Shown here: positions 5,805-63,780 of the stretch, one piece after another | How positions within the stretch are numbered: position 1 is the stretch's first letter | Layout of the letters: each line of letters begins with the position of its first letter | Source: a virus | Taxonomy: Duplodnaviria > Heunggongvirae > Uroviricota > Caudoviricetes | Length of the DNA: 64,000 nt | IMG/VR virus record: IMGVR_UViG_3300048850_000064 | Coordinates: 39,743-103,742 of that record | Strand: one strand, 5' to 3' | Position numbers and translations under genes: made by a program | Notes under the pieces: model-generated | The model's database searches: none | What the model was told of the DNA's origin: nothing | Seen by the model: only the letters and a program-made list of their open reading frames with translations

Positions 5805-5845
5805 CGTAGTCAGTCACTAATAACTGATTGCATCCCGCTGCGCGC

Positions 5846-5883
5846 TTGCTATAACGATAATCGAAAGTCAGCAATGACTGATT
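5846..5883 (+). promoter_or_regulatory. Phage promoter/operator signature (TTGCTATAAC + AGTCAGCAATGACTGATT palindrome)
   Basis: Motif read directly; second imperfect palindrome at 5808-5829. Confidence 0.55.
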
Positions 5884-5902
5884 GGGAAGCGAGAGACACA
5901 AT

Positions 5903-6100
5903 ATGAAAACCACATTCCAGGTGCGCGCCGAGCGCACCGTCACCCTTGAAGATCTGCACATGCTGGAAGTGTTCGTCCTGCCCGAATACGAGATCGAGGC
6001 GGAGGACTGCGACGAGGCGCTCGAGGAGTTCTACTGGCACGCGCCGATCGTCGATCACTCCCACTTCACCGTCCAGATCGTCGGAGGACATGCCCGATGA
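5903..6100 (+). CDS. Hypothetical small acidic protein
   Basis: ATGA overlap with 6097 gene. Confidence 0.5.
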   Translation: MKTTFQVRAERTVTLEDLHMLEVFVLPEYEIEAEDCDEALEEFYWHAPIVDHSHFTVQIVGGHAR

Positions 6101-7182
6101 TCTACGGCATCGCCTCTGATCTGCACTGCCATGCCTGGTCGACGTTCGCGACGATCGACAGCGACGGTGTCAATTCGCGCCTGCGCATCATTCTTTCCGA
6201 GCTCGAGCGCACGGCCGCTGCCATCCAGAAGGCGGGCGGCAAGCTGCTCGTCATCGCCGGCGACATCTTCCACACCCGCGGCTCGCTCGATCCGGAAGTC
6301 CTCAATCCGACGCAGGACACCTTCCGCAAGATCCTCGATACCGGCGTCGAGATCGCCTTCATTCCCGGCAACCATGATCTGAAGGGTAAGGACGCCTCGG
6401 CGCTGACGAGCGGAGCCCAGACGCTCGGCGAGACCTTCTCGACCGAAGCGACGGTGCGACCCTTCAACGTTCCGGCGCGCTGGGACAACATCGCCTTCCT
6501 GCCGTGGCGCGAAAGCATTGACGAGCTGATCGCCTCGGCGCGCAAGCTTGCCGGCGAATGCGGTAGCCAGCTCAGCCAGACCGACCTGATCATCCACGCC
6601 GGCATCGATGGCACACTTGCGACCATGCCGCCGCGCGGACTGACGGCCGGCCGGCTCGCAGCGCTTGGCTTCCGGCGCGTCTTCGCCGGCCACTATCACC
6701 ATCACGTCGATCACGGCGGCGGGGTCTATTCGATCGGCGCGACGACGCACCAGACCTGGTCAGACGTCAATTCCAAGGCCGGCTTCCTGATCGTCAGCGA
6801 CGACAAGGTGCAGTTCCACGAAAGCCGTGCGCCGCGCTTCATCGATATTACCGGTATGGACGTCGAGGAGATGGAAGCGACCGTGCCGAACAACTATGCC
6901 CGCTTCCGCGGTGAGGGCTTTACGCCCGAGCAGCTCAAGGAGCTGAAGGAGTGGCTGTTCGAGGCCGGCGCCAAGGGCGTGTCGATCCAGGTGCCGAAGT
7001 CGACGACCATTGTCCGCACCGGCGCGACCGGCGCCAAGTCGAAGGCCGTCACCCTCGACCAGTCGGTGCTCGACTATGTCGACGCCGCAAAGGACATTCC
7101 GGCGCATATTGACCGCGATAGTATCAAGCGAGAATGCGCCGACGTCCTCTCAAGTGCCAAAGCAGTATACGAAGAAGCCTGA
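6097..7182 (+). CDS. Mre11/SbcD-like nuclease (calcineurin-like phosphoesterase; T4 gp47-like)
   Basis: DLHCH, GDIFH, IPGNHD metallophosphatase motifs; partner Rad50-like ATPase at 8909. Confidence 0.7.
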   Translation: MIYGIASDLHCHAWSTFATIDSDGVNSRLRIILSELERTAAAIQKAGGKLLVIAGDIFHTRGSLDPEVLNPTQDTFRKILDTGVEIAFIPGNHDLKGKDASALTSGAQTLGETFSTEATVRPFNVPARWDNIAFLPWRESIDELIASARKLAGECGSQLSQTDLIIHAGIDGTLATMPPRGLTAGRLAALGFRRVFAGHYHHHVDHGGGVYSIGATTHQTWSDVNSKAGFLIVSDDKVQFHESRAPRFIDITGMDVEEMEATVPNNYARFRGEGFTPEQLKELKEWLFEAGAKGVSIQVPKSTTIVRTGATGAKSKAVTLDQSVLDYVDAAKDIPAHIDRDSIKRECADVLSSAKAVYEEA

Positions 7183-7236
7183 CGCTTCCCGCAAGTGTCT
7201 ATGCTATAAAGATACTTAGAGACACAGGAGAACATA

Positions 7237-7614
7237 ATGACTCAGTTCTATACGGTTATTATCGAGAAGCGGCATGTAATCTCGAAGTTCGACGAGCGCG
7301 GCAGGAAGATCGGCGAGACCGAGACGACCGTCGAGCAGACCATCGCCGACCTGCCCTGGCAGACGGCGCAGATGTATCAGCAGAAGACGCCGTCCTGCCG
7401 GATCATCAAGCAGGACATGGCCGGCTTTGGCGACAAGCGCAATCACCGTGTCCGCTTCGGCGACACGAAAACTGGCAAGAGCCAGCGCGCCGAGCCGACC
7501 AAGCTCGACATGCCGGTCGCCAAGAAACCGACGGCCGCTCCCGGCGCTGGTCTGCGCAAGGCCGCAGAGACCGGCGATCTCGCAGCAGCCATCAACGCAG
7601 GAGAAGCAGCATGA
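7237..7614 (+). CDS. Hypothetical protein
   Basis: 125 aa; RBS-like caggag upstream. Confidence 0.5.
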   Translation: MTQFYTVIIEKRHVISKFDERGRKIGETETTVEQTIADLPWQTAQMYQQKTPSCRIIKQDMAGFGDKRNHRVRFGDTKTGKSQRAEPTKLDMPVAKKPTAAPGAGLRKAAETGDLAAAINAGEAA

Positions 7615-8912: not shown

Positions 8913-10846
8913 AATTCACCAAGCTCCTACTCGAACAGTTTCTTGCCATCACCAAGGCCGAGATCAACCTCGCCGATCGCGGACTGATGCTCATCCAGGG
9001 CATCAACGAGGACGATTCCTCGGCCGAATCCAACGGCGCCGGCAAGTCCTCGCTCGCCGACGGGCTTTGCTGGGTGCTCTACGGCGAGACCGCCCGCGGC
9101 GTCTCCGGCGATGCCGTCATCAACGACAAGGCCGGCAAGGGCACGATGGGCCAGGTCGATATCGACGACGGCGACGACGTCTATCGCATCGCGCGCCATC
9201 GCAAGCATCCCAAGCACAAGAACAGCCTGACGGTTATGCACCTGGCGAAGGACGGCACGATCAACGAGCTGACCAAGGGCACCGACAAGCTGACGCAGGA
9301 AGTGGTCAACAGGATCGTCGGCGCATCCCTCGAGGTCTTCCGCGCGGCCGTCTATGCCGGCCAGGAGCTGATGCCGGATCTGCCGGCGATGACCGACAAG
9401 CAGCTCAAGGTGCTGATCGAAGAGGCGTCCGGCGTGACGCTGCTCGAGGAGGCTTACAGGCTGGCGCGCGACAAGCTTTCCGCAGCCAAAGCTGCACATT
9501 CAGAAGTGACTGACCAGACCGACAAGGCAGGTATGCGCAAGGACATGCTCGAGGACCAGGTCATCACGACCACGGCGCAGCGCGACGGCTGGGAGATCGA
9601 CCGCAAGACGAAGATCGCCACGCTGAAGGCCGAGGTCGGCATCCGCGTCGGCACGGTCAAGGATATCGACGCCGACATTGCCGCGATCGACGAGCCGGCG
9701 ATCGCCAAAGGACTTGCCGATTGCGATGCGAAGCTCGCGTCGCTGTCCGGCGAGCAGAAGACGCACAACGATCTCGCCCGAAAGGTGACGACCGCGCAGG
9801 GTGAAATCACCAATCATAGACGCTTCGCCGAGGCCTACAAGCGCGAGCATGAACAGATCCGCGATCAGATCGCGGCGCTCGACGCGACGGTCGGCACGCC
9901 CTGTCATGAATGCGGGCGCGAACACGACCGAGATACCATCGCCGTTCACAAGGCAGCCCTGGTCAAGAAGGCGGGTGAACTCGCCGAGCGCTTCAAGGAG
10001 TCCAAGGACAAGATGAAGCAGGCCACGGAAGACGCACAGAAGCTCGAGGGCGAGCTCCATGCGTTTGCTGCGTCGATGACTGACCCGAGCGCGATCAACG
10101 CTGAGCGAGCGTCCCTGCTCGGCCAGCAGCGCGCCTTGGACGACTTGAAGCGAAAGCGCGAAGTCGAAGCTGTGCAGGCGAAGAATCTCGCCAACCAGGC
10201 CAAGGAACTGACCGCAGCCGTCAACCCGCATCTTGCGACGCTCACCGACCTCGAGGCGAAGATCGCCAAGATCGACGCGGAGCTCGGCGTGCTTGCCGGC
10301 AAGCTGAAGGAAGAGGCCGGCAAGGTCGAGATTGCCGAGAGCGTCGTCAAGGTATTCTCGCCGGCCGGTGTCCGCGCCCACATTCTCGACGAGGTGACGC
10401 CGTTCCTGAACGCCCAGACGTCGAAATACCTGTCGATCATGTCCGACGACAATATCGAGGCGGTGTGGACGACGCTGGTGCCGAACTCCAAGGGCGAGCT
10501 TAAGGAGAAGTTCTCGATCGAGGTCACGAATGCTAAGGGTGCAAAATCCTTCGGTGGACTGTCGGGCGGCGAGAAGCGCAAGGTCCGGATCTGCACGGCG
10601 CTGGCACTCCAGGATCTCGTGGCGACCCGCGCGACGAAACCGATCGACCTCTTCATCGGCGACGAAATCGACAATGCGCTGGATCCCGCGGGTATCGAGC
10701 GGCTCACCCAGATCCTCGAGGACAAGGCGCGCGAGCGTGGCAGCGTCTTCGTGATCTCGCACAGCGATCTCAAGGATTGGGTATCTCAGGTCATCACCGT
10801 GAAGAAAAAAGACGGCGAGACCACGCTTCTCGAGGAGATCGCGTAA
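8909..10846 (+). CDS. Rad50/SbcC-like SMC ATPase (T4 gp46-like)
   Basis: Walker A NGAGKSS; long coiled-coil with CHECG zinc hook (~9901); C-terminal LSGGEKRKV signature and DEIDNALD Walker B/D-loop. Confidence 0.75.
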   Translation: MKFTKLLLEQFLAITKAEINLADRGLMLIQGINEDDSSAESNGAGKSSLADGLCWVLYGETARGVSGDAVINDKAGKGTMGQVDIDDGDDVYRIARHRKHPKHKNSLTVMHLAKDGTINELTKGTDKLTQEVVNRIVGASLEVFRAAVYAGQELMPDLPAMTDKQLKVLIEEASGVTLLEEAYRLARDKLSAAKAAHSEVTDQTDKAGMRKDMLEDQVITTTAQRDGWEIDRKTKIATLKAEVGIRVGTVKDIDADIAAIDEPAIAKGLADCDAKLASLSGEQKTHNDLARKVTTAQGEITNHRRFAEAYKREHEQIRDQIAALDATVGTPCHECGREHDRDTIAVHKAALVKKAGELAERFKESKDKMKQATEDAQKLEGELHAFAASMTDPSAINAERASLLGQQRALDDLKRKREVEAVQAKNLANQAKELTAAVNPHLATLTDLEAKIAKIDAELGVLAGKLKEEAGKVEIAESVVKVFSPAGVRAHILDEVTPFLNAQTSKYLSIMSDDNIEAVWTTLVPNSKGELKEKFSIEVTNAKGAKSFGGLSGGEKRKVRICTALALQDLVATRATKPIDLFIGDEIDNALDPAGIERLTQILEDKARERGSVFVISHSDLKDWVSQVITVKKKDGETTLLEEIA

Positions 10847-10861: not shown

Positions 10862-10893
10862 TTGCTATAACGTAATCAGTAACTAATGACTGA
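10862..10893 (+). promoter_or_regulatory. Promoter/operator signature (TTGCTATAACG + TCAGTAACTAATGACTGA)
   Basis: Read directly. Confidence 0.55.
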
Positions 10894-11374
10894 TAGGGCC
10901 ATGACGAACGAAGAACTCACCATCGAGGTCGGCAAGAAGATCACGGAGCTTCTCAAGGAGTCCATCTTCGAGATCGACGGCACCCCGAAACTCACCGTGA
11001 AGCGGGAGGATGGCAATCCTCCCTATTCGAAGAAGGCCATGATCTCCGGCGCCGAGTTCATGCTGACCGACACCTATATGGGCTCGCGCGAGGGGCTGAT
11101 CCTCTGCTTCTCGCCGGTCGACGCGCAGCCGTTCACGGTCGAAATCCCGGCCAAGAAGGTCGACGACGTCTTTCAGAACTTTGGTTTTGAGCTCGCCCAG
11201 GCGCTCGAACCCGAGGCGCAGACCGTCGCCGTCGAGGACACGATGACGATCATCAACCAGATGGTCGGCCGGCTGCGCAAGCAGAAGCTCGCCGAGGCCG
11301 AGGAGGCGGAGGAGCGCGAGAAGAACCGCGTCGCCAATGCCTATGACGGCAACCCGCTTTTCGGAATGTTTTGA
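10886..11374 (+). CDS. Hypothetical protein
   Basis: 162 aa ORF (alternative start 10901). Confidence 0.5.
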   Translation: MTDRAMTNEELTIEVGKKITELLKESIFEIDGTPKLTVKREDGNPPYSKKAMISGAEFMLTDTYMGSREGLILCFSPVDAQPFTVEIPAKKVDDVFQNFGFELAQALEPEAQTVAVEDTMTIINQMVGRLRKQKLAEAEEAEEREKNRVANAYDGNPLFGMF

Positions 11375-11990: not shown

Positions 11991-12016
11991 AGTCAGTCAT
12001 TACTGACTTACTATAT
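11991..12016 (+). promoter_or_regulatory. Operator palindrome AGTCAGTCATTACTGACT + TACTATA
   Basis: Read directly. Confidence 0.5.
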
Positions 12017-14193: not shown

Positions 14194-14786
14194 GTGGACT
14201 CGGCGCATCCATGGCCGGCGGAAATTCGTCCGCCGGCAGACGAAAAGACGACTTCTACGCCACGATTGACACCGACGTCACCGAGGGACTTTTGAAGCGG
14301 ATCTCGTTTGGCGATCGGAAGATCCATGAGTGCGCCGTAGGCACCGGCGAAATGGCCGAGGTTATCAAGGCCTACGGCTATGACGTCGTCGCATCCGACA
14401 TTGTCGATCGCGGCTATCCTGGAACGATGGTCATCGACTTCCGCCAGCTCGCCCAGCGGGCAGCGCCGGTCGTGATCACCAATCCGCCCTTTAACGTCGC
14501 GGCCGACTTTATCGAACACGGAATGGGTCAGCTCAAACTTGACGCAATGGCGCTGCTGTTAAAGTCGACCTTCTTCCACGCGGCCAAGCGAAAGCCGCTG
14601 TTCGTCAAGCATCCGCCCCTGTTCAAGCTCGACCTGCTCTGGCGACCGGACTTCTCCGGCGAGGGCTCTCCGACGATGGAGCTGTCCTGGTTCGTCTGGA
14701 AGCGCGGTCATCAGGGGTCGACTACCTACAATCTTATCGAAAAGCCGAGAGTCTCCCGACTGACTGAATGCTATAAAGCTAGTTAG
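14190..14786 (+). CDS. DNA N6-adenine/N4-cytosine methyltransferase
   Basis: VVITNPPF motif IV; ATGA overlap with nrdJ stop. Confidence 0.65.
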   Translation: MSGLGASMAGGNSSAGRRKDDFYATIDTDVTEGLLKRISFGDRKIHECAVGTGEMAEVIKAYGYDVVASDIVDRGYPGTMVIDFRQLAQRAAPVVITNPPFNVAADFIEHGMGQLKLDAMALLLKSTFFHAAKRKPLFVKHPPLFKLDLLWRPDFSGEGSPTMELSWFVWKRGHQGSTTYNLIEKPRVSRLTECYKAS

Positions 14787-14800
14787 TCAGTCATTACTGA
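14769..14800 (+). promoter_or_regulatory. Promoter/operator signature (TGCTATAAAG + AGTCAGTCATTACTGA)
   Basis: Read directly. Confidence 0.55.
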
Positions 14801-14816
14801 ACGAACGAAGGACACA

Positions 14817-17350: not shown

Positions 17351-17971
17351 ATGCTCTACGGTTTCACAGGCGCTTCCCGCTCCGGCAAGACGACCACGGC
17401 GCAGGCCGTCGCCGACGATCTCGGCATTGAGTTCTATGCCACTTCGACCTCGGCCGTAGCCAAGGCGCATGGGTTTGACGCGGTCGCTCCCATGCCGCTC
17501 GCGCGTCGCCTCGAGCTGCAGCACATCCTCCTCGCCAATCACCTCGAGGAGATCGAAAAGCGGTCGCGGCCGCTGATCGTCGACCGCACGCCGCTCGACT
17601 TCCTCGCCTATGCGGCCTGCGAGTTCCACATGACCTCGCATATGCTCGCCGACCAGGAAACGACCGATCTTGCGGCGAGCTTCTACGAAATCTGCCTCGA
17701 CGCCGCGGCGAGATACTACGATTGCATTTACTACCTGTCGCAGCTCGACACCTACAAGGAGGAGCCCGACAAGCCGGCGCCGAACAAGGCGTTCCACCGG
17801 CACTACGACTTCGTCGTCCGTGGCGCGCTCGCCGAGCTTTCCGGCCGGATCAACATGGCGATCATCCACCCGAAGGATTTCGAGGATCGGCGTGAATGGA
17901 TCGGCGAGGATATTACCGAGCGCCTCGACGTCCTTGACAAGCTGCGCACTTCTTCGGTCTATCTGCACTAG
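17351..17971 (+). CDS. P-loop NTPase (nucleoside/nucleotide kinase-like)
   Basis: Walker A GASRSGKTT. Confidence 0.5.
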   Translation: MLYGFTGASRSGKTTTAQAVADDLGIEFYATSTSAVAKAHGFDAVAPMPLARRLELQHILLANHLEEIEKRSRPLIVDRTPLDFLAYAACEFHMTSHMLADQETTDLAASFYEICLDAAARYYDCIYYLSQLDTYKEEPDKPAPNKAFHRHYDFVVRGALAELSGRINMAIIHPKDFEDRREWIGEDITERLDVLDKLRTSSVYLH

Positions 17972-18060
17972 TCAGTCAGAAATGACTTGCACGCGGTAGC
18001 ATCTTCCGATAGTTACCGCGTGCACCCCTACGCGTTTTCGCTATAGTCATTAATGACTGA
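17969..18060 (+). promoter_or_regulatory. Two operator palindromes (AGTCAGTCAGAAATGACT; CGCTATAGTCATTAATGACTGA) flanking a 7-bp IR CGCGGTA...TACCGCG
   Basis: Read directly. Confidence 0.5.
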
Positions 18061-18097
18061 ACGTGAAGCGCAGACTTGAGACACAAGGGATAAACGA

Positions 18098-47126: not shown

Positions 47127-47147
47127 CAACGCTCACGAAGGAGAGAC

Positions 47148-48008
47148 ATGATGAGCAAGCGCAAGATCAAGACCATCGAGCACGCCGTCGAAGTGATCGA
47201 ACAAGACACCGCCCCGGTTCTCGAGGGCGACAGCACCTATCTGACGCTCGAGGACCACAAGGCGATCATGGCCGACTACGAAGAGTTGGCAGCCGCCGAC
47301 GTTGCGACCGTCGCCGCCCTCGAGGCAATCGAAGAGGCTGTTGCCGAGCAGTCCGAGGAAGCGCCGGCCGGTGAGCCGGATCATCAGCCGAGCCTGCTCG
47401 AGCTCGTCGCCTCGGTCGAGCAGGATCCGGAGGATCTCGACACCGCCCGCAAGCAGGTCGCTGCCGCCTTCGACACCCGGGCAGACTTCGAGCGCAAGAA
47501 GAACCCGGACAACGAGTCGATCCAGACGAGCCTGAAGAAGAGCCGGGCGAAGCTGACCCAGGGGCGCTCGGTGGCGATCCTGATGTCGGCGGGTGCCGCA
47601 CCCGACTTCATCACCCGGTCGACGAATGAAGGCTCCGCCTACAACGTCTACGCGGCCGACAAGGTCGCCGACCTCGTCAACGCCTTGAACTCCGGCGTGA
47701 TCGGCAACGCCATCAACAACGCCGTCTGCCGCTCGCTCTTCAGGTTCCGGGCCGCGGGCGAGGCCTTCACCGGCGAGATGGCGCGTGCCGCAGCGTCCGA
47801 CAAGCTGCGTGTCCAGGGCACGATCGCCAAGCTGCTCGTCCGGCACACGGTGTCGCCGTCGACCGCACCGACCCAGGCGTCGTCGACGATGCAGGCACTG
47901 CAGACGCTCGGCATCGTCAAGAACACCGGCACGACGCGCGCCCCGGTCTATGCACTGACCGACAGCCCGGCAGCAAAGCGGCTCGAAGCCGTCGTGATGG
48001 CCGCATAA
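47148..48008 (+). CDS. Hypothetical protein (286 aa)
   Basis: gaaggagag RBS. Confidence 0.55.
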   Translation: MMSKRKIKTIEHAVEVIEQDTAPVLEGDSTYLTLEDHKAIMADYEELAAADVATVAALEAIEEAVAEQSEEAPAGEPDHQPSLLELVASVEQDPEDLDTARKQVAAAFDTRADFERKKNPDNESIQTSLKKSRAKLTQGRSVAILMSAGAAPDFITRSTNEGSAYNVYAADKVADLVNALNSGVIGNAINNAVCRSLFRFRAAGEAFTGEMARAAASDKLRVQGTIAKLLVRHTVSPSTAPTQASSTMQALQTLGIVKNTGTTRAPVYALTDSPAAKRLEAVVMAA

Positions 48009-50167: not shown

Positions 50168-50212
50168 GTAGTTACGCTTCGCGTGCTCGTCTGCGCTTCA
50201 AAGCGTAACTAC
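50168..50212. repeat. 12-bp inverted repeat GTAGTTACGCTT-N21-AAGCGTAACTAC at left edge of low-GC island
   Basis: Read directly. Confidence 0.6.
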
Positions 50213-50614
50213 ATCTCTAGCGCTCAATACGCGCGCAACATGCGAACGACGTCTATTTCGTCTCGCTTATAAACACGCGCTGTATAGCGCATATTACGAT
50301 TGTCTAAATAAGCAGCGATTTGTGCTTTCGCTTGCTTGCGCGCGCGCTCACGTTCACGCTTGCGTCTGACAGTTTCTGTCACGTCGATCGATGATTTAGA
50401 CATTGCTAAATCTTTCGCGCTGACGTCTGTAATAAGCGCTCATGCGCTTGCGCTTGTCGCGCTCACGCAATGCGCGTCGAAGATCGTTGTTTGCTTTGCG
50501 CGTGTTAAGCAGCGCTGCTTTCAATCTCAGATATATTAGCATGTTCTTGAATCTCGCTTTCGAGTGAAACGAAAGAATGACGCGCTGCAGAGCGCGTCAT
50601 TCATAAGTGACTGA

Positions 50615-51205
50615 TTATTGAGCGTAACGTTCAAGAATCGCTTGTGTCAGTTTCGAGTCTGTATTGAGCGCGTAAACGTCTTTCGTCGACGTTTCGCGCA
50701 AGATATCGAGTGCACACAATGCTTTCAAAGACATCGATGCTTGACGTTTTGCAGCGCTCACGATTGTTTCGCGACGTGAGATATACTTTTCTCTTTCTTT
50801 CGCGACTTCAATCGCTTTGTCTTTCTTGCTTGTGCACGACGCGTAAGCATCGTTGCGCGTCATCGTGAGACTATCACGATGCAGATTGATTGCAGTTTCA
50901 AGCACAGTTCTTGCATTGTCTGTCTTGATATTAGCAACTGCTTTGAAAGCGAACTGCAGATAATCTGCAGTTCTAGCAATCGCTTTCATGCAAAACTTCG
51001 AATTTACATTCTCGTAAGCGTTGATGAATGCAGAGCTCATGTCTTGCTGCGCAAGCAGCGCGACGAATTGTGTGCTCGCATAGACTTGCTTTGCTTTCTT
51101 CAACAGAGCAATTGATGCATCGCATGCAGTTGCTTTCTCTTGCGTCTCGAAAGCGATACGAGTTTCGATAGCAGCGACGAAAGAGTTTACAGTTTCGTTT
51201 GTCAT
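50615..51205 (-). CDS. Hypothetical alpha-helical protein encoded in low-GC island
   Basis: 196 aa minus-strand ORF; local GC ~45% vs ~62% elsewhere. Confidence 0.5.
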   Translation of the reverse strand: MTNETVNSFVAAIETRIAFETQEKATACDASIALLKKAKQVYASTQFVALLAQQDMSSAFINAYENVNSKFCMKAIARTADYLQFAFKAVANIKTDNARTVLETAINLHRDSLTMTRNDAYASCTSKKDKAIEVAKEREKYISRRETIVSAAKRQASMSLKALCALDILRETSTKDVYALNTDSKLTQAILERYAQ

Positions 51206-51783
51206 TGTCTTGTCTCTCTTGTTTAACGTTGACTGTTTTATTGTTGTTTCATTCTGTCATGTCGCGCAAAGCGCAAAGCGCTTGCGTCGAAGATGATCTA
51301 TTCAGTTGTCAAAGAGCGCTGCATTTCTGCAGTGACTCTTTCTTCGCATGTTTCTGTGTGAGTCGTCAAGTGACTTTATGCGCTTGTGACTTAAAATATG
51401 TGCTTTTCTGCGATAGCGTTTAGTTCGCTCATAGAGACGCATAGACGCGCGTTCTTGCTTGTGTGTCGCGAGATACTCACTTGTGCGTCTATCGCGCTCT
51501 ACGCGCTTGTGTGTGCGATTGTGCGTCTATCGCGTCTGTCACTGTCATTGCACGTTGCTTGCTTGTCATCGTCGCGCTGATCGTCGCGCGCTCGACATGA
51601 TCGACGCCCGATCCCTCCTAGAGAATTAGCGAAGTCTTAGAAAATGCGACGTGACGTGATCCGGATGCCGCCTGTCACCCTCGTCTCCCCGGTTCCTATC
51701 CACCTCTGTCTGTGGGCTGCCCAGGAAGGTCCGGATCTTTGCGGTGGATCGACGGATGGTTGGTTGCTTGGTGGTTGATGGTG

Positions 51784-51804
51784 ATCAGTCACTATTGACT
51801 GACT
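51784..51804 (+). promoter_or_regulatory. Operator palindrome ATCAGTCACTATTGACTGACT
   Basis: Read directly. Confidence 0.45.
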
Positions 51805-53393: not shown

Positions 53394-53648
53394 TCAATCG
53401 TTCTTTCTGGCTTTCTCGCGCTTCCACGCCTCGAAGGCTTGCTCGAGCAGGCCTTTCAGCTTCAGGCCGTTGACCGCGGCCGTCACCTTCATTTCGTGGG
53501 CGAGCTCCGGCGATACCTTGAAATTCAGGTCGACGTATTTCTTCTCGCGGATGTTGTCGGGTGCTGCAGCCGGCTGAATGGTCGGGATTTCGCCCAAGCC
53601 CGTCGCAAAGCCGGCACGGGCGCGAGGTCTGACGGGTGCCTTGGTCAT
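53394..53648 (-). CDS. ParG-like small partition DNA-binding protein
   Basis: 84 aa immediately downstream of parA, overlapping by 4 nt. Confidence 0.45.
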   Translation of the reverse strand: MTKAPVRPRARAGFATGLGEIPTIQPAAAPDNIREKKYVDLNFKVSPELAHEMKVTAAVNGLKLKGLLEQAFEAWKREKARKND

Positions 53649-54301
53649 GCGGGTGTTGCCTCCTGGTCTTCCAGTTCATTTGCGCGGGTGACGATCTCGG
53701 TTGCGAGCGTCTCGGCGCGTTCGTTGAGCGACGGGTGATCGGTCTCGGAGACCGCGGCGCCGATACCCTGAGCGTTGTGATAGCTGGTCTTTACCGGCAG
53801 ATCCGTCTCGGCATAGCGAAAACCGGCCGCGGTGATGAAGTCCTGGGCGTTTCTGAGCGCCGGCGCCGAGCCGATCGTCTGGTTGATGACGAAGAGCAGC
53901 CGGTCGCGCTTGACGCCCTTGGCGACGAGCTCGTTGGCAAACATCACTTGCGGCCGCAGGTCGTCGACCGAGACGCCGGTCGGAATGACGTTGAGGAGCG
54001 CCACCCGGGCCGCTTCCAGCGAGGTCGTGTCGGAATCGGGCTTGCCATCGACGACGATCAGGTCGTGGCTTTCCCGGGCAAGCGCCTTGACCGAGGAGAA
54101 CGGCTCGGCCGCGATCTGCGGCTCGAGGCTGTTGACCATCCGCAGCGCCACCCAGTCGACCGAGGTTTTCTGCTTGGTGTTGAAGTCGGCGATCTTCACC
54201 GACCAGCCGGCAGACGCATAGGTCCGGGCAATGAGCCGGGCGATCGTCGATTTGCCGACGCCGCCCTTTTGCGAGAGACAGGTGATGATGAGCGCGGCCA
54301 T
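53645..54301 (-). CDS. parA: ParA-family partition ATPase
   Basis: Deviant Walker A SQKGGVGKST; ~218 aa type-Ib size. Confidence 0.7.
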   Translation of the reverse strand: MAALIITCLSQKGGVGKSTIARLIARTYASAGWSVKIADFNTKQKTSVDWVALRMVNSLEPQIAAEPFSSVKALARESHDLIVVDGKPDSDTTSLEAARVALLNVIPTGVSVDDLRPQVMFANELVAKGVKRDRLLFVINQTIGSAPALRNAQDFITAAGFRYAETDLPVKTSYHNAQGIGAAVSETDHPSLNERAETLATEIVTRANELEDQEATPA

Positions 54302-54370
54302 AATTCGTTCTTTCGCTAGTTCGTGCGAGCCATATTTCGGGCAAGAACGTAAACGATTCGTTTAGGCAGC

Positions 54371-54398
54371 GCAAAAAAAGAGCCCGTCAGGCGGGCTC
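54371..54398 (-). terminator. Rho-independent terminator (minus strand)
   Basis: GAGCCCG-cctga-CGGGCTC followed by U7 on minus strand. Confidence 0.65.
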
Positions 54399-54950
54399 GA
54401 AACCCTCGAGGTCGAAGAGCATTTCGTATTCGTCGAGGCTGACCTTGATCGTCTTCCAGGTGAAGATGATCGCGTCGTTACGATGGTCGTCCGTCCGCTC
54501 AAAGTCCGGCGAGACGTTGTTCCTGGTGCAGAAGTCGGCGATCCTGCGGAACTCGTCGCCTGACGATTTGAGCTCGAATTTGCTCAGTTCCGCCCTGCGG
54601 ATGAAGGCGGGGCGCATGATCCCGTAATCGTCGCGGATCTCGACCGCTCCTCCGCGCCGGCGGGTCTGACAGTCGAGATAGCCGACCATGCGCTTCTCGA
54701 CCCAGACCTGAACACGCTCTCTCGTGAAGATGTCGATAGGGTAGGGGTCCAGGGGATCGGGCTCCGGCGCGTGCAGAGCTTCGATAGCGTCCTCGAGCAT
54801 CTCCCTGGTAAGGGTGGAACCGCCGATCCTGTCTGCGGTGATGGAGTTGGCAATCATCTTCTCGGCCGAGATTGCCGTCGGCCGCAACATGCCGACGCCG
54901 TGATGCCAGGTCGTGCTCGTCAAGGCACCGAAGGGGTCCGGCTTCGTCAC
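54387..54950 (-). CDS. Hypothetical protein
   Basis: GTGA overlap with upstream gene at 54947-54950. Confidence 0.45.
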   Translation of the reverse strand: MTKPDPFGALTSTTWHHGVGMLRPTAISAEKMIANSITADRIGGSTLTREMLEDAIEALHAPEPDPLDPYPIDIFTRERVQVWVEKRMVGYLDCQTRRRGGAVEIRDDYGIMRPAFIRRAELSKFELKSSGDEFRRIADFCTRNNVSPDFERTDDHRNDAIIFTWKTIKVSLDEYEMLFDLEGFEPA

Positions 54951-55537
54951 AGCGCGATCTCCGTATGATTGCCGATCACCGCGATCAGCTTGTCGGCCAG
55001 GTCGCGCCGGGCCTCTTCCTTCGACAGGCCGCGCGCCAGGCCGTCGTTCTGGATCCGCGCCTGGCAATAGGCGTTGTTGTAGGCGTCGAAGGGATAGATC
55101 GAAGGCGGGGCGAGGGGATTGACGATCTCGATGACGAGCGCGCCGCGGTCGCGCCAGTATTTGCCCTGCTCACGACGCACCGAGCCAAAGACGGAATAGC
55201 TGCCCTTCGGCCGGGCATGATGGCTCATCATCGGGATGACCTCGCCACCGAACTTGTCCTCGAAGGCATTGCCGATCTCACCGAGGATCTCGCGGACCTG
55301 CCACTTGCGGCCGTTGATCTCGACATATTCGAGCTTGCCTTCCTGGGTGAAGACCTGGTGCGCGGTGAGGCCGAGATAGTCCATGGCGATCTTGCGCAGC
55401 GGCAGGCCGTCGTCGGCGAGCTCGTGACCGTAGATCTCGTTGATGATCTCTGCAGCCGTCGACTTGCCGGAGGTCGGATTGCCGCAGAGCGCGATGATCT
55501 TCGGCAGGGTGACGAGCGGGAAGGGGGATGCGTTCAA
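54947..55537 (-). CDS. P-loop dNMP-kinase-like protein
   Basis: Walker A CGNPTSGKST. Confidence 0.5.
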   Translation of the reverse strand: MNASPFPLVTLPKIIALCGNPTSGKSTAAEIINEIYGHELADDGLPLRKIAMDYLGLTAHQVFTQEGKLEYVEINGRKWQVREILGEIGNAFEDKFGGEVIPMMSHHARPKGSYSVFGSVRREQGKYWRDRGALVIEIVNPLAPPSIYPFDAYNNAYCQARIQNDGLARGLSKEEARRDLADKLIAVIGNHTEIAL

Positions 55538-55557
55538 GGGAGCGTCTCCTGTGAGAA

Positions 55558-55584
55558 AGTCAGTAATGACTGACTATATAGCGG
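55558..55584 (-). promoter_or_regulatory. Promoter/operator signature on minus strand (rc CCGCTATATAGTCAGTCATTACTGACT)
   Basis: Read directly. Confidence 0.55.
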
Positions 55585-57616: not shown

Positions 57617-57648
57617 GATATATAGTCAGTCATCAATGACTGACTGAG
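57617..57648. promoter_or_regulatory. Divergent promoter region with palindrome TATATAGTCAGTCATCAATGACTGACTGA
   Basis: Between minus helicase gene and plus 57657 gene. Confidence 0.55.
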
Positions 57649-57656: not shown

Positions 57657-58394
57657 TTGTCGTATCCGAAATACGCGATAGTCGACTCAGGCGAGCTGAC
57701 CCCGCCGCCCTCCAATCCCAACATCATGACGCCCGAGAACGAGGCCAAGCTCGAGGCGTCGATCAAACGCTTCGGCTTCTTCCGCCCGGTGATCGTGCGC
57801 GAGCTGGAGGACAAGCTCGAGATCGTCGGTGGCGAGCATCGCTGGGAGATCGCCCGGCGCCACGGCATGAAGGTGCCGATCATGAATCTCGGGCCGATCT
57901 CCGACCAGGAAGCGCGCGAGATTCTCTTGGCAGACAATGCCCGTTACGGCGTCGACGACACACTGTCGCTCGCCGAATTCCTCAAGGAGATGGGGGATGT
58001 TGCCGTCGACGATCTGCAAGACTTCCTGCCCTATACTGAAACCGATCTCACTGAAATTTTCTCGTCAGTAGATATAGCGCTCGACGATCTGGATATCGCG
58101 GAAAGCTTTGAAAAAGACGAGGAAAAAGACGCCGAACCGCCGGCCGTCAAGGCACCGAAGACCCATACGATCATGCGCTTCAAGGTTGCGCTCGCCGATG
58201 CCGAGCGGCTGACCGAGGTGATCGCCAAGACCCAGAAGCATCACGGCTACACCACGGCCGACGAACTGACCAATGCCGGCGACGCGCTGGTGCACCTGGT
58301 CTTCGGCTCGACCGCCCGGATTGAGCCCGCGGAAGAGCCCGCCTTCGAGCTCGACGACATCGACGAAATCGACCTCGAGGATCTGGGCGAATGA
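57657..58394 (+). CDS. ParB-like nuclease domain protein
   Basis: IVGGEHRWEIARRHG ParB/Srx motif. Confidence 0.55.
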   Translation: MSYPKYAIVDSGELTPPPSNPNIMTPENEAKLEASIKRFGFFRPVIVRELEDKLEIVGGEHRWEIARRHGMKVPIMNLGPISDQEAREILLADNARYGVDDTLSLAEFLKEMGDVAVDDLQDFLPYTETDLTEIFSSVDIALDDLDIAESFEKDEEKDAEPPAVKAPKTHTIMRFKVALADAERLTEVIAKTQKHHGYTTADELTNAGDALVHLVFGSTARIEPAEEPAFELDDIDEIDLEDLGE

Positions 58395-58570: not shown

Positions 58571-59231
58571 GGCTCTGCCGGTCGAGCTGTGGGAAACCGA
58601 CCGCCTCGTTCCATACGAGAAGAACGCCAAGAAGCATCCGGAAGAGCAGATCGAGAAGCTGGCGAAAGCCATCGAGCGCTTCGGGTGGGATCAGCCGATC
58701 GTCGTCGACAAGGACGGCGTCATCATCAAGGGCCACGGCCGGCGCCTGGCTGCGCTGAAGCTTGGTCGCAAGAAGGTGCCGGTGGTCATCCGCCGCGACC
58801 TGTCGCCGGCCGAATGCGATGCGCTGCGGCTTTCCGACAACCGCGTCGTGTCGACCGACTACGACATGGATCTCGTCAATGAGGAGCTCGCCCGGTTTGC
58901 CGACGACACCGACCTGATCGGCGCCATCGGCTTCGATGCCCGCGAGCTTGAATTCGCGATCGGCGACATCGCCGCGATGGACGAGACGATCTTCGTCGAC
59001 GACATCGCCACGGCCGTCGAGGAGCAGAAGACCGAGACCGACCGCAAGGCCGGCGAGGCCGACGACATCGCCGCACCCGTCGCCGACGCCTTCGGCTTCA
59101 AGCGCGTCACCATCGCCCAGTCGCGCGAGATCCGCGGCTACATGTCGAAGATCGAGGCCACGACCGGCAAGCAGGGCGTCGATGCCCTGCTGCACTTCTT
59201 CGGCGACGCCGCTTCCGTTCTGGGGATTTAG
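58560..59231 (+). CDS. ParB-like nuclease domain protein (second copy)
   Basis: IIKGHGRRLAALKLG, DNR. Confidence 0.55.
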   Translation: MTTEALPVELWETDRLVPYEKNAKKHPEEQIEKLAKAIERFGWDQPIVVDKDGVIIKGHGRRLAALKLGRKKVPVVIRRDLSPAECDALRLSDNRVVSTDYDMDLVNEELARFADDTDLIGAIGFDARELEFAIGDIAAMDETIFVDDIATAVEEQKTETDRKAGEADDIAAPVADAFGFKRVTIAQSREIRGYMSKIEATTGKQGVDALLHFFGDAASVLGI

Positions 59232-59237
59232 TAAGTC

Positions 59238-59639
59238 ATGAATGACATACCGGACAATGTCATCGCCCTGCGCTCGAAGAAGTCGCTCGCCGAAACAGAG
59301 GCGGCCGAGCTCGAGGCGATCGAGAAATCCAACCAGGCGGAGATCGCCACAAACCTCGCCTGGTTCGACAAGATCCGCGAGAACATTGCGGCCGGCCATT
59401 TCACCATGCCTTTCGTCATCGCCTATGCGCCGGACGCCGGGCTGTTTCTCTGCGACTTCGTAGCGCCGGAGTCCGGTATCTCCGCCTCGCTGGCGCGCGA
59501 ATACATGGCCCAGCTCGAACTGGCGAAGCTCTCGATGGCCGAAATAGCCTCGATGGGACCGGTGCTGCAGGTCGACGGCAGCATTCTCGACCAGACGGCC
59601 GCGGCCGAAGCCGAGCCGGAAGGGGAGGGCGACGAATGA
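59238..59639 (+). CDS. Hypothetical protein
   Basis: Start inside palindrome TAAGTCATGAATGACATA. Confidence 0.45.
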   Translation: MNDIPDNVIALRSKKSLAETEAAELEAIEKSNQAEIATNLAWFDKIRENIAAGHFTMPFVIAYAPDAGLFLCDFVAPESGISASLAREYMAQLELAKLSMAEIASMGPVLQVDGSILDQTAAAEAEPEGEGDE

Positions 59640-61616: not shown

Positions 61617-61671
61617 CGTTTTTCGTATAGATATTAGATTCTAACTAATAACTATATTTATACGAAAACGC
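61617..61671. repeat. IR-flanked AT-rich element (CCGTTTTTCGTATA-N28-TATACGAAAACG)
   Basis: Paralog of 46846-46897; upstream of terminase genes. Confidence 0.6.
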
Positions 61672-61755
61672 TTCCGGATTTTAGTTCAACCTTGAACATT
61701 CTCCGGCACGAAAAGGCTGCGAGGGTTGAGAATAGGACTTATCCGGTTTAGGATG

Positions 61756-61776
61756 TTAAGTCATTACTGACTGACT
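61756..61776 (+). promoter_or_regulatory. Operator palindrome TTAAGTCATTACTGACTGACT
   Basis: Read directly. Confidence 0.5.
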
Positions 61777-61788
61777 AGAGTTGAAAAC

Positions 61789-62496
61789 ATGAGCGATGAA
61801 ACACTCTCCGGCCCGATTGAAGACGAGGAGCTCGCGGCTCTCGACGACGATGCCGTTGCCGAGGACGACGCCGCCGATCCGGCGCATGAGGCGAAGAAGG
61901 ACAAGCGTCTGACCGAGGCGGAGAAGGCCGAGATTCGCGAACTGTTCGAACTCGGCAAGATGCGCATGGGCGAGCTGGCGACCAAATACGGCGTCACCCG
62001 CCAGGCGCTGTTCAAGTGGTTCAAGAAGGACGGCATCGTCTATGGCTCGCGCGCTCACGAGATCGCCGCGGCCATATCGTCCGGGCTGAAGAAGGCCGAG
62101 GCGACCCATGCCGAGCGCTACGCCGAAAAGCGCATGGAGTGGATCGAGGAGAGTCGCGTCCAGGGCTACAAGGATCTCAAGCAGGCGATCATGATCGTCA
62201 AGAAGACGCTCGCCGACGCGGTAGTCTCCAAGGCGCCGCTGGGCTCGATCGACGACGACCTGAAGGCGCTGACGCGCTATCACCGGATGCTCGAGAACAA
62301 CGCGGCCGCCCGGCTGAAGCTGCTCGATGCCGACAACGTCGTCGACGAAAAGGATCTGCCGAAGCTGCAGATCGAGGATCTGACCGTCGACAAGATCGTC
62401 GAGTTCCACAAGAACAACGGCATCACCGACGAGGAGGAGCTCGACGCGATCATCAATCGGTTCGCCAATCCGCTCGGAGAGGCGCCGGAAGAATGA
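61789..62496 (+). CDS. Terminase small subunit (HTH-containing)
   Basis: Immediately upstream of terL with ATGA overlap; MGELATKYGVTRQALFKWF HTH. Confidence 0.5.
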   Translation: MSDETLSGPIEDEELAALDDDAVAEDDAADPAHEAKKDKRLTEAEKAEIRELFELGKMRMGELATKYGVTRQALFKWFKKDGIVYGSRAHEIAAAISSGLKKAEATHAERYAEKRMEWIEESRVQGYKDLKQAIMIVKKTLADAVVSKAPLGSIDDDLKALTRYHRMLENNAAARLKLLDADNVVDEKDLPKLQIEDLTVDKIVEFHKNNGITDEEELDAIINRFANPLGEAPEE

Positions 62497-63749
62497 CGCT
62501 TTTCCTGCATCCCGGTCAGAAGATGGTGATCCGCGATCCGCGGCGCTTCCGCGTCGTGGTCGCCGGCCGGCGCTGGGGCAAGACCCAGGTGTCGAAGGCC
62601 GCGCTGATCAGGGCTGCCGTCGAGAAGAACAACCAGCTCGTCTGGTATGTGGCGCCGACCTACCAGATGGCCCGCGGCATTCTCTGGGACGACCTGAAGA
62701 ATTCGATCCCGCGCGCCTTCGTCAAGTCGATCCACGAGACGCGCCTGTCCATCCGGCTGATCAACGGCTCGAAGATCGAGCTGAAGGGCGCCGACAAGCC
62801 CGATACGCTGCGCGGCGTCGGTATTCACTTTCTGGTCATCGACGAGGCCCAGGACATCAAGGAAGAGACCTGGACGCTGGTCCTGCGCCCGACGCTGTCG
62901 ACGACGGCCGGCCGGGTGGTCTTCATCGGCACGCCGAAGTCGTTCAACTGGCTCTACGACCGCTATGTCGACGGCCAGCGCGGCGACACCTATCTCGACG
63001 ACAAGGGCAAGCTGCAGGTCAATCCCTGGAAGAGCTGGCAGTTCCCGACCGTCACCTCGCCGTTCATCCCGCCGTCGGAAATCCACCAGGCGCGCCGCGA
63101 CCTCGACCCGAAATCCTTCAAACAGGAATACGAGGCCTCCTTCGAGACGATGGCCGGCCGCGTCTATTACGGCTTCGACCGGCGCACCCATGTCGGCGAC
63201 TATCCGTTCAACCCGCACCTGCCGATCAAGATCGGCATGGACTTCAACATCAACCCGATGTCGGCCGTGGTCATGCAGGAGCAGGCCAATGGCGAGATCT
63301 GGGCGGTCGACGAGATCATCCTGCAGGGCTCGAACACCCAGGAGACGGCCGACGAGATTTCGCGCCGCTACTGGCGCCATATGAACCAGATCACCATCTA
63401 CCCCGACCCGGCCGGCAACAACCGCAACCACGACCGCGGCGAGAGCTCGCTGCAGATCCTGCGCGAGGCCGGCTTCAAGAGGCTGATGTTCCGGCGCAAG
63501 CATCCGGCCGTCGCCGACCGCGTCAACTCGGTCAACCGGCTGCTGATCGACGCCGAGGGCACCATTCGCTTCAAGGTCAACCGGATCTGCAAGCATACGA
63601 TCGAGGCGCTGGAGCAGACGATCTACAAGGAAGGCTCGCGCGAGGTCGACAAGAAGGCCGGCGTCGAACACCCGGCCGACGCGCTCGGCTATTTCGCAGA
63701 ATACGAGCATCCGGTGATCTTGCGGCAGATCGCAGGGGTCTCCATTTAG
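62493..63749 (+). CDS. Terminase large subunit
   Basis: Walker A VVAGRRWGKT, Walker B LVIDEAQD, C-terminal nuclease-like region. Confidence 0.75.
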   Translation: MTLFLHPGQKMVIRDPRRFRVVVAGRRWGKTQVSKAALIRAAVEKNNQLVWYVAPTYQMARGILWDDLKNSIPRAFVKSIHETRLSIRLINGSKIELKGADKPDTLRGVGIHFLVIDEAQDIKEETWTLVLRPTLSTTAGRVVFIGTPKSFNWLYDRYVDGQRGDTYLDDKGKLQVNPWKSWQFPTVTSPFIPPSEIHQARRDLDPKSFKQEYEASFETMAGRVYYGFDRRTHVGDYPFNPHLPIKIGMDFNINPMSAVVMQEQANGEIWAVDEIILQGSNTQETADEISRRYWRHMNQITIYPDPAGNNRNHDRGESSLQILREAGFKRLMFRRKHPAVADRVNSVNRLLIDAEGTIRFKVNRICKHTIEALEQTIYKEGSREVDKKAGVEHPADALGYFAEYEHPVILRQIAGVSI

Positions 63750-63780
63750 TCTTGCTAGTCAGTCAGTAATGACTTAATAT
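63750..63780 (+). promoter_or_regulatory. Promoter/operator signature CTTGCTAGTCAGTCAGTAATGACTTAATAT
   Basis: Read directly. Confidence 0.5.

Follow-up and report, generated by a model that had tools for sequence, protein, structure and literature searches.

What is the role of a palindrome that recurs ahead of transcription units along a viral element? The question is raised by IMG/VR virus record IMGVR_UViG_3300048850_000064 (Caudoviricetes), of which we analyzed positions 39,743 to 103,742. This whole stretch of 64,000 nt is called the window, and coordinates refer to it unless stated otherwise. By similarity and synteny, the element is a ~115-kb plasmid-prophage of Alphaproteobacteria belonging to the pLM21S1/RHEph10 family, with repC lying outside the window. 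A preliminary description had reported the palindrome, AGTCAGTCAT-nn-ATGACTGACT, near GCTATAA boxes and had proposed either a dedicated phage promoter with an operator for one global dimeric regulator or an RNA hairpin. Our analysis favors the interpretation, with a probability of roughly 0.68, that the palindromes are operators of a single element-encoded, sequence-specific repressor that would bind as a dimer or a dimer of dimers.

The window contains 24 strong and two weak copies of the palindrome. The 18-mer TCAGTCATNNATGACTGA, with up to two mismatches, matched 14 times as compared with 0.00 in 100 dinucleotide shuffles, and the 22-mer AGTCAGTCATNNATGACTGACT, with up to 5 mismatches in 20 positions, matched at 25 places as compared with 0.1 in block shuffles. 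A scan with a position weight matrix (PWM) built from curated copies was sharply bimodal: 24 sites scored 21.6-35.2 bits, the sites at 20396 and 9494 scored 17.2 and 14.1, and all else was below 10 bits, shuffle maxima averaging 10.5. The comparison with shuffled sequence thus bears out the earlier statement that the motif is far too frequent for chance (24 strong copies versus ~0.1 expected). All 22 copies that had been listed were real, their positions being off by a few bases at most; the strong sites at 3106 and 50595 had been overlooked. Every one of the 24 strong sites lies outside gene interiors, interior coding sequence making up 80% of the window (binomial p ~1e-17), and the palindrome centers are mostly 17-54 nt from a start codon.

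Within the 22-bp dyad, two cores are conserved, A5-G-T-C-A9 and T14-G-A-C-T18, such that the half-sites are ~9 bp apart. Columns T7, A9, T14 and A16 are invariant, and A5, C8, A12 and G15 are at least 90% conserved. The copies typically have one good and one poor arm; only that at 57624-57645, AGTCAGTCATCAATGACTGACT, is a perfect palindrome. The start codon does lie within the palindrome at 24212 and 59238, as had been observed, and also at 3118, the ATG belonging to the right arm in all three; at 22700, an ATG spans the left arm and center. The description of copies on both strands was overstated, the minus strand being represented by one site (55554) and one divergent region (57624). The copies, their neighboring open reading frames (ORFs) and the predicted promoters are as follows, with centers given relative to the predicted transcription start.

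3106-3127, plus strand: copy AGGCATTCATAAATGACTGATC at a gene junction; ATG 3118 starts ORF 3118-3552; no recognizable promoter; terminator-like hairpin (3072-3089) directly upstream.
5808-5829, plus strand: copy AGTCAGTCACTAATAACTGATT; right end directly beside TTGCAT, the -35 of the promoter at 5848; preceded by a terminator-like hairpin (5776-5789); paired with the next copy, centers 54 bp apart.
5862-5883, plus strand: copy 3' of promoter TTGCAT-16-TATAAC (GCTATAAC, 5848-5855); center ~+11; 20 nt before ATG 5903 of a small ORF, which is followed by an SbcD-like gene.
10874-10895, plus strand: copy 3 nt after TGCTATAAC (10864-10871); center ~+7; before ORF 10901-11374.
11991-12012, plus strand: copy with two mismatches before the ribonucleotide reductase (RNR) gene (12049); -10-like TACTAT/TATATC at its right end; center ~-22.
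14785-14806, plus strand: copy after TGCTATAAA (14770-14777), with an extra half-site, ACTGACTGA, just 5' of that -10; center ~+12; before ORF 14817 and then a ThyX-like gene.
17970-17991, plus strand: first of two copies ahead of rIIA, after TTGACA-18-TCTATC; center ~+11.
18041-18062, plus strand: copy whose left arm is overlapped by the -10 CGCTATAGT; center 47 nt before the rIIA start (18098); preceded by a terminator-like hairpin (18017-18034).
22692-22713, plus strand: copy whose left arm is overlapped by GCTATATA/TATAGT (22685-); center ~+2 to +4; contains ATG 22700 of ORF 22700-22957.
24200-24221, plus strand: copy at a gene junction; ATG 24212 starts ORF 24212-24430; no recognizable promoter.
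27437-27458, plus strand: copy after TGCTATAAC (27424-27431); center ~+10; before ORF 27480.
31062-31083, plus strand: copy whose left arm is overlapped by TGCTATATA (31055-); center ~+4; before ORF 31098.
33552-33573, plus strand: copy whose right arm, CTGACT, is a -35 located 17 bp before GCTATAAT (33585-33592); center ~-37; before ORF 33615.
35539-35560, plus strand: copy whose left arm is overlapped by GCGCTATAGT; before ORF 35572.
37143-37164, plus strand: copy with one mismatch after GCTATAAC (37125-37132); center ~+15; heads a noncoding-like stretch of ~430 nt.
37602-37623, plus strand: copy with its center 31 nt before ORF 37643; no strong promoter recognized.
47104-47125, plus strand: copy 34 nt before the family-conserved ORF 47148-48008; weak -10 only (TGC-GATACA).
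50595-50616, no strand assigned: copy at the 3' end of minus-strand ORF 50615-51205 and left edge of a low-G+C island; orthologous site at 2546 in the Shinella plasmid.
51783-51804, plus strand: copy whose right arm, TTGACT, is a -35 located 18 bp before TACATT; center ~-37; before ORF 51847; right edge of the low-G+C island.
55554-55575, minus strand: copy with minus-strand promoter GCTATATA at 55582-55575; center ~+4; upstream of ORFs 54947-55537 and 54387-54950, both then separated from parA by a terminator.
57624-57645, no strand assigned: perfect copy AGTCAGTCATCAATGACTGACT between the helicase operon (minus strand) and the ParB_N-protein operon (plus strand, start 57657); promoter TTGCCT-16-TATATA; center ~+4.
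59230-59251, plus strand: copy at a gene junction; ATG 59238 starts ORF 59238-59639; orthologous site at 10686 in the Shinella plasmid.
61755-61776, plus strand: copy after TTGAGA-17-TAGGAT; center ~+5; before small-terminase-like ORF 61789.
63757-63778, plus strand: copy that forms the 17-bp spacer of TTGCTA-17-TAATAT; center ~-19.5; before gene 63805, which follows the large terminase; the orthologous site of relatives has the same architecture.
20396-20417, plus strand: weak copy (PWM 17.2) inside the 3' end of rIIA, 58 nt before the rIIB start.
9494-9515, plus strand: weak copy (PWM 14.1) inside an SbcC-like gene, possibly a chance match.

To locate promoters, we used a relaxed sigma-70 model. 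A generic E. coli-type scan (T at hexamer position 6, 9/12 matches) was unsuited, as its rules miss these promoters: it returned one promoter-like site in 20 kb versus 4.2 in shuffles. According to the relaxed model, 12 of the 24 palindromes score above the 95th percentile of random positions (1.2 expected) and, by model or inspection, ~19 of the 24 overlap a promoter-like element. The predicted arrangements fall into five groups. In group (a), a separate TGCTATAA(C/A) box lies upstream and the center is at +7 to +15 (5862, 10874, 14785, 27437 and 37143, to which 17970, with TTGACA-18-TCTATC, is added). In group (b), a TATAGT/TATATA -10 covers the first three bases of the palindrome and the center is at ~+2 to +5 (18041, 22692, 31062, 35539, 55554 and 57624, together with 61755, with TTGAGA-17-TAGGAT), so that the transcription start would fall inside the palindrome. 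In group (c), the palindrome constitutes the 17-bp spacer between the -35 and -10 elements and is centered at ~-20 (63757, with TTGCTA-17-TAATAT, and 11991); several structural-gene promoters of the Shinella plasmid are built likewise, such as TTGCAC-17-TATTAT and TTGCAA-17-TAGTAT. In group (d), the right arm (TTGACT or CTGACT) coincides with the -35 or adjoins it (33552, 51783 and 5808). Finally, in group (e), no promoter was recognized and the palindrome covers a ribosome-binding site or start codon at a junction or lies at a 3' end (3106, 24200, 59230, 37602 and 50595). Overall, ~14 operators are predicted at +2 to +15, two near -20, three at -37 to -43 and five at junctions. Overlap between promoter and operator, as proposed in the preliminary description, is therefore retained; the fixed spacing is not, the palindrome lying downstream of the -10, in the spacer or over the -35. 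More specifically, a position 3-10 bp downstream of GCTATAA, described as usual, applies to five sites only; at ~5-6 more, a TATAGT/TATATA -10 overlaps the left arm, and the remaining sites have other geometries.

The GCTATAA box occurs 13 times in the window, versus 1.4 expected, always on the plus strand. GCTATA[AT] occurs 18 times on the plus strand and three times on the minus strand, in each case 15-63 nt before a co-oriented start codon, and 13 of the 18 plus-strand boxes are preceded by T, yielding TGCTATAA, an extended -10. This element resembles an ordinary sigma-70-type extended -10 (TGnTATAAc), which argues against a dedicated phage promoter; it also matches GCTANAWC, the alphaproteobacterial housekeeping consensus. 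The boxes without a palindrome that had been noted at 7201, 25508 and 44064 are real (7203, 25512 and 44066), and there are others:

186-193, plus strand: -10 box TGCTATAAC before an ssb-like gene (299).
7203-7210, plus strand: -10 box TGCTATAAA before ORF 7237.
25512-25519, plus strand: -10 box TGCTATATC, also given as GCTATATC, before ORF 25575.
33754-33761, plus strand: -10 box TGCTATAAC before ORF 33816.
34509-34516, plus strand: -10 box TGCTATAAC before ORF 34560.
41412-41419, plus strand: -10 box GCTATAAT before a small ORF and Doc-toxin pair (41562-42117).
44066-44073, plus strand: -10 box TGCTATAAC before ORF 44114.
4913/4925 and 37092: other palindrome-free boxes.

Several further sequences accompany these promoters. 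The string GAGACAC(A) / GGAGAGACA stands directly before start codons (5885-5902, 7211-7236, 14807-14816, 18080-18097, 27459-27479, 37624-37642 and 47135-47147), following many palindromes and palindrome-free promoters. This string, which the Shinella plasmid has as well, might represent an extended ribosome-binding or leader motif. The leader GAAAGAACGAA is present in three copies following the promoter at 186 (194-230) and in one just before the parA start (54303-54320). A promoter cassette, TTGCATCCC..GCTGCGC(G)CTTG (5828-5850), sits between two palindromes in the window and recurs at non-orthologous places in Rhizobium phage RHph_Y2_11 (locus L001, 393-414 and 22764-22787), as though copies of a promoter-operator module had spread through the genome.

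We next considered whether the palindrome acts in DNA or in RNA. As a hairpin in a 5' untranslated region or between cistrons, it could control processing, stability or translation, as the preliminary description had suggested. The location of the sites 17-54 nt before start codons, the presence of the start codon inside the palindrome in 3-4 cases and a strand-specific A at position 12 are consistent with such a role. However, across the 24 gene-oriented copies, stem pairing was 70.0% versus 73.5% when the 3' letters were shuffled among copies, with 498 of 500 shuffles at or above the observed value. Double changes occurred at only two pairs, no change was compensatory, and the covariation score was below the shuffle mean. 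G-U and A-C mismatches were about equally frequent (13 versus 16). At default thresholds, a search of the window against Rfam gave no match and ARAGORN found nothing. Because the arms degenerate independently, without compensatory changes, G-U bias or an Rfam match, we consider it highly probable that the palindrome is a protein operator in DNA. Moreover, no hairpin could form in RNA at the sites overlapped by TATAGT, since the predicted start is inside the palindrome, and the A-rich variants of relatives would be expected to form a weak stem. Action in RNA is accordingly very improbable.

A further property of the palindrome emerges from comparison with related elements. The window, whose G+C content is ~61% and whose genes are nearly all on the plus strand, encodes a UvsX/RecA-like recombinase, an SbcCD-like nuclease, RNR, rIIA, rIIB, RtcB, a helicase and a large terminase, together with ParA, two ParB_N proteins, a Doc toxin fragment, a DNA ligase and one XRE protein. 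Its nearest sequenced relatives are Rhizobium phages RHEph10, RHph_N1_10, RHph_Y2_11, V1VFA-S and B1VFA, and related plasmids of 115-120 kb occur in Sinorhizobium (pLM21S1), Shinella, Methylobacterium, Pararhizobium and Rhizobium. All of these are distant, with 74-82% DNA identity over short stretches only, and the closest relatives in the collections searched have ~70-76% protein identity; a look-up of the terminase by exact protein sequence gave no match. Synteny is extensive with the complete Shinella plasmid (S. zoogloeoides, NZ_CP132310.1), and that of the helicase, ParB_N genes, terminase, parA, rIIA/B and RNR is common to the family. Genomes, viral contigs and metagenomes yielded 63 related loci around the helicase orthologue, and a further 51 were sampled around cobS and repC; individual loci carry L numbers. 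In most loci long enough to judge, the top over-represented words formed a palindrome of the same build and register with a lineage-specific sequence:

This window: AGTCAGTCAT-nn-ATGACTGACT.
Many loci, including the Shinella plasmid: (A/G)TAAGTAA(G/T)-nn-...
L005/27/38/42: TATAAGTCAG-nn-CTGACTTATA.
RHEph10-type, L010 and L011: TCAGTCAAT-ATTGACTGA.
L032: AGTAAATCAAT-ATTGATTTACT.
L054: AATAACTAAC-nn-...

Variant words in relatives include TAAGTAAG, TAAGTCAG, TCAGTCAA, TAAATCAA and TAACTAAC, with TCAGTCAT in the window. Orthologous sites were seen at the portal, the small terminase and the gene that follows the terminase, at the first ParB_N gene, RNR and rIIA, at the minus-strand operon beyond the helicase and on either edge of the low-G+C island. 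In the complete Shinella plasmid, the sites number ~40, many of them ahead of capsid and tail genes. Dozens of sites shifting in concert within each lineage are the signature of co-evolution with a sequence-specific, trans-acting factor carried by the element.

We sought the factor among element-encoded proteins. The leading candidate, to which we give even odds of being the palindrome binder, is a Cro/C1-type helix-turn-helix (HTH) protein of ~135 aa. It is encoded divergently from a small ribbon-helix-helix (RHH) gene and repC, ~4 kb upstream of cobS, sigma and dnaE, and was found in each of the 12 loci anchored on cobS, among them the Shinella plasmid, and in 37 of the 40 anchored on repC. 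Most of the 37 have a weak hybrid operator 60-150 nt upstream of the HTH gene start, the best operator of the locus (0-1 mismatch) just past the gene's stop and terminator, and another ~300 nt on. The helix-3 region of the protein falls into classes that match the palindrome classes, the class that accompanies ..GTCA.. palindromes being of a non-Asn type. In partial Mantel tests against motif divergence over 27 non-redundant loci, the DNA-binding region of the HTH protein correlated with the motif given RepC (r = 0.49, p = 0.001), as did the helix-3 region given the C-terminal domain of the same protein (r = 0.43, p = 0.001). The converse correlations were low for the C-terminal domain given helix 3 (r = 0.09, p = 0.106) and for RepC given helix 3 (r = 0.11, p = 0.057). 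For the HTH region, r spanned 0.41-0.49 (p = 0.001), versus 0.09-0.11 for the controls. The protein has no LexA-like cleavage domain, which would fit the reported lack of induction by mitomycin C.

Other candidates were rejected or given low weight. The XRE protein (40393-40800) that had been proposed as the regulator had no homologue in 79 related loci, including a complete relative with ~40 palindromes; its gene adjoins the Doc toxin gene. The second regulator proposed earlier, the HTH tail of the rIIB product (20464-21915), was rejected as the palindrome binder because ICRKTLKKLFDKHG is invariant across lineages with differing palindromes. This tail, the C-terminal 30 residues of rIIB, is a conserved HTH-like sequence, GxSNRxIExxLHICRKTLKKLFDKHG, common to RHph_Y2_11 and an IMG/VR relative. 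The first ParB_N protein (57657-58394) is universal and has no recognizable HTH; its N-terminal domain alone matches solved ParB/Noc structures, and in the C-terminal segment, LTNAGDALVHLL, its sequence is conserved whatever the motif class. The 196-aa protein of minus-strand ORF 50615-51205, considered as a cI-like repressor, has detectable homologues in lineages with other motifs and was given low weight; it is fast-evolving and had no match in Pfam, PHROG or PDB. None of the host-factor motifs considered (CcrM GANTC, CtrA TTAA-N7-TTAA, LexA GTTC-N7-GTTC, IHF, RirA and the Pho box) fits the palindrome.

The small RHH protein required closer consideration. The window encodes a partition pair consisting of a type-Ib-like parA (53645-54301) and an RHH gene (53394-53648, 84 aa). 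The beta-strand of the RHH protein reads N-F-K in every lineage with ..GTCA.. palindromes and T/S-F-N/K in nearly every lineage with ..GTAA.. palindromes (G-F-R in L045), with at least two co-transitions on the helicase tree. The same beta-strand classes also track TAGCGA/TAGCTA repeats in parA promoters and nearby arrays. In the parA promoter (54302-54390; orthologues L003-L059), the repeats are TAGCGA/GAACGA in the window and TAGCTA in many relatives, and relatives also have these units in large arrays close to parA (ATAGCTAT, TAGCTAAA and TTAGCGAA). These repeats are probably the partition operator or centromere of the type-Ib-like system. Since the classes track repeats located where a type-Ib protein is expected to bind, we assigned the RHH protein to the repeats, of which it is more likely the partition protein than the palindrome binder.

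Taken together, the data suggest the following mechanism. An operator with two AGTCA/TGACT cores overlaps a host-type sigma-70 promoter core (TGCTATAAc, TATAGT or -35/-10 pairs), and the bound repressor would block RNA polymerase binding, open-complex formation or escape; on junction sites, it could act as a roadblock. The ~40 sites per genome, 24 of them in the 64-kb window, would silence nearly all replication, nucleotide-metabolism, packaging and structural operons, most likely in the plasmid-prophage state. Promoters without an operator would stay active, namely those of the Doc toxin module, parA and small-gene operons (186, 7203, 25512, 33754, 34509, 41412 and 44066). Lineage-specific palindromes would confer distinct immunity specificities. 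The frequency and placement of the sites, the independence of their arms, the family-wide conservation with lineage-specific sequence and the co-variation with the HTH region are shown directly; from these we infer promoter activity, the positions of transcription starts, protein binding, repression and a role in lysogeny. Control is probably negative: by established promoter architecture, a protein at the positions of groups (a) to (d) would obstruct RNA polymerase, and no activator is known to work from +2 to +15. Silencing of a plasmid-prophage is the most economical reading because the window contains parA and the RHH gene, relatives contain repC, and toxin-antitoxin genes are present. On balance, we lean slightly towards prophage immunity as the role; an early-to-late switch during lytic growth is somewhat less likely. 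One global dimeric regulator whose operator overlaps the promoter is thus the part of the preliminary description that is best supported, its proposed regulators and dedicated phage promoter having been set aside.

Other explanations assign the palindrome to a different kind of protein. A partition-type protein, either the 84-aa RHH protein (ParG/omega-like) or ParB_N, might bind the palindromes as centromere-like sites that double as global operators, in the manner of KorB of RK2 or omega of pSM19035. The parA-RHH pair, the match between beta-strand classes and ..GTCA../..GTAA.. palindromes, and the location of the sole perfect palindrome 23 nt before the first ParB_N gene are in keeping with this, as is the partial correlation of ParB_N with the motif (0.35), the highest among proteins of the helicase neighborhood yet no better than that of terminase or ABC ATPase. 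By contrast, the RHH classes track the shorter TAGCGA/TAGCTA repeat at the place expected for a type-Ib operator or centromere, the parA promoter of the window has its own upstream terminator and no 22-bp palindrome, and ParB_N combines the lack of a recognizable HTH with a LTNAGDALVHLL segment that does not vary between classes; we regard partition-type binding as unlikely. A dual-purpose binder, serving segregation or copy control as well as genome-wide silencing like KorB or omega, or one that acts by position, repressing at +2 to +15 and remodeling or activating near -20, is equally doubtful. In the position-dependent case, one protein and one motif would time the whole phage program.

The palindrome might also be a positive promoter element that marks one temporal class for the element's own sigma factor or activator. 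In relatives, a sigma-70-family protein is encoded next to cobS/dnaE and the arm reads TATAAGT, which is -10-like; several sites have no good -35. In P1, a 9-bp inverted repeat near -22 serves the Lpa activator at late promoters. Nevertheless, the position of the palindrome with respect to the -10 ranges from ~-43 to +15, beyond what an activator or sigma factor would tolerate, and +2 to +15 is typical of repressors. The sites precede replication, nucleotide-metabolism and structural genes alike rather than a single temporal class, spacer-type promoters already have near-consensus -35/-10 elements at 17 bp, and a promoter has no need of symmetric arm conservation. A positive element is therefore quite improbable. 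Binding by a global regulator of the host, through which the element would sense host physiology, is less probable still. Although the window encodes no convincing regulator, related elements in closely related hosts have different palindromes, which shift in concert within each element, and the divergence of the palindrome tracks an element-encoded HTH domain.

Several observations weigh against repression of a prophage by the repC-linked protein. That protein has no homologue in the window; by synteny, its gene would lie ~10 kb to the left, such that the version belonging to this element is not readable. Its co-variation with the motif is suggestive, not proof, as shared ancestry was only partly controlled, and the 84-aa RHH protein tracks one motif position equally well. 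The family encodes a sigma-70-family protein between cobS/MoxR and dnaE (L067 25362-26018; L001 1688-2323). The crude sigma-70 model finds nothing convincing at five of the 24 sites, and the excess of promoter scores in the gene direction over those of the opposite strand is only marginally significant (Wilcoxon p = 0.048). Position 12 is A in 22 of the 24 gene-oriented copies and the symmetric position 11 is T in only 11, an asymmetry that a purely symmetric dimer site does not account for. On the doubtful reading of a binder with more than one function, this asymmetry and the ATG start codons of the right arm could point to an added layer at the level of RNA or initiation. With respect to lysogeny, the argument comes from plasmid-type genes only, RHEph10-type phages came from infectious virions, and mitomycin C failed to induce pLM21S1 (PMC4447125). 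Separately, the structural-gene promoters look like ordinary -35/-10 promoters despite the sigma-70-family protein encoded in the family.

Multi-operator control is familiar from other systems. L5 and other Cluster A phages have 20-30 repressor operators or stoperators genome-wide whose motifs differ by lineage and correlate with repressor distance, giving different immunities, and some of these phages are extrachromosomal and carry parABS (PMC6550527). The window resembles them in its many dispersed sites and in its lineage-specific motifs. By contrast, L5 stoperators are asymmetric 13-bp sequences that are oriented with transcription, lie mostly off promoters and block elongation, whereas the sites of the window are 22-bp dyads of which ~19/24 overlap promoters; they are not L5-type stoperators, and the proteins are unrelated as far as tested. 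The C1 repressor of P1, also a plasmid-prophage, acts on many scattered operators over a genome of ~90-120 kb, these being asymmetric 17-mers, ATTGCTCTAATAAATTT, and P1 late genes are controlled indirectly through Lpa. The operators of the present family are symmetric and also stand directly at structural-gene promoters, and thus differ from C1 operators in sequence and symmetry; no C1 homologue was found, although no search was aimed at one. The repressor of phiC31, which integrates into the chromosome, binds conserved inverted repeats (CIRs) of 17 bp at ~18 intergenic positions near early promoters; the likeness lies in inverted repeats at many intergenic positions, whereas sequence, host, phage family and repressor type differ. 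Finally, KorB (ParB-family) at the OB operators of RK2 and omega (RHH) at the heptads of pSM19035 bind palindromic or repeated promoter sites in large number and couple global repression to partition. The window likewise encodes ParB_N and RHH proteins, but the RHH protein points to the TAGCGA repeat and ParB_N has no recognizable HTH, which does not support membership in this group. The regulon of the window therefore appears to be of the same functional kind as the L5, P1 C1 and phiC31 systems and a member of none.

In the literature searched, such control had not yet been described for the pLM21S1/RHEph10 family, and nothing was reported on the regulation of these plasmid-prophages. The papers that describe pLM21S1 and RHEph10 as the archetypal members of a plasmid-like prophage group having a RepC replicon and a partition system (PMC4447125; PMC5537653; PMC7969092) do not mention a repeated palindrome, and a literature search with the motif string found nothing relevant. 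These elements appear to be widespread in Rhizobiales and other Alphaproteobacteria, ~100 related loci having been recovered from isolates, viral contigs and metagenomes. The regulon is likewise widespread and, with structural genes included, unusually complete. The palindrome would provide a map of the family's transcription units, a candidate master repressor and a simple marker by which to recognize and classify the family in metagenomes. Its lineage variants are a natural series for the evolution of immunity specificity, as stoperators are for Cluster A mycobacteriophages, and rhizobia could be provided with orthogonal regulated promoters in the form of operator-promoter cassettes and their cognate repressor.

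Three other features of the window were noted. ORF 26484-27359 encodes RTX calcium-binding nonapeptide repeats and a serralysin C-terminal-like region, an unusual passenger for a phage; no homologue was detected in the two relatives checked. Between the palindromes at 37143 and 37602, ~430 nt (37165-37600) have no coding signal: G+C at third codon positions is 0.54-0.57 in all ORFs of this stretch, as compared with 0.7-0.9 in typical high-G+C genes sampled and 0.46 in the low-G+C ORF 50615-51205. It is predicted to be driven by the GCTATAAC promoter at 37125 and contains, besides a duplicated segment, AATTCGCCCGAATGGGCA, a degenerate tRNA-like structure that ends in CCA (37478-37553) and is called by ARAGORN, as tRNA-Ala-like, at a relaxed threshold only. 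The stretch matches nothing in Rfam and may represent a decayed tRNA or an uncharacterized RNA. Lastly, the low-G+C island (50200-51800; ~52% versus 61%) has an inverted AT skew and is bounded exactly by the palindromes at 50595 and 51783. It contains a minus-strand operon for the 196-aa helical protein and two small basic ORFs, as well as repeat units such as TTGTGCGTCTATCGCG (twice) and ATAGACGC. The Shinella plasmid has the same island arrangement with an unalignable gene.

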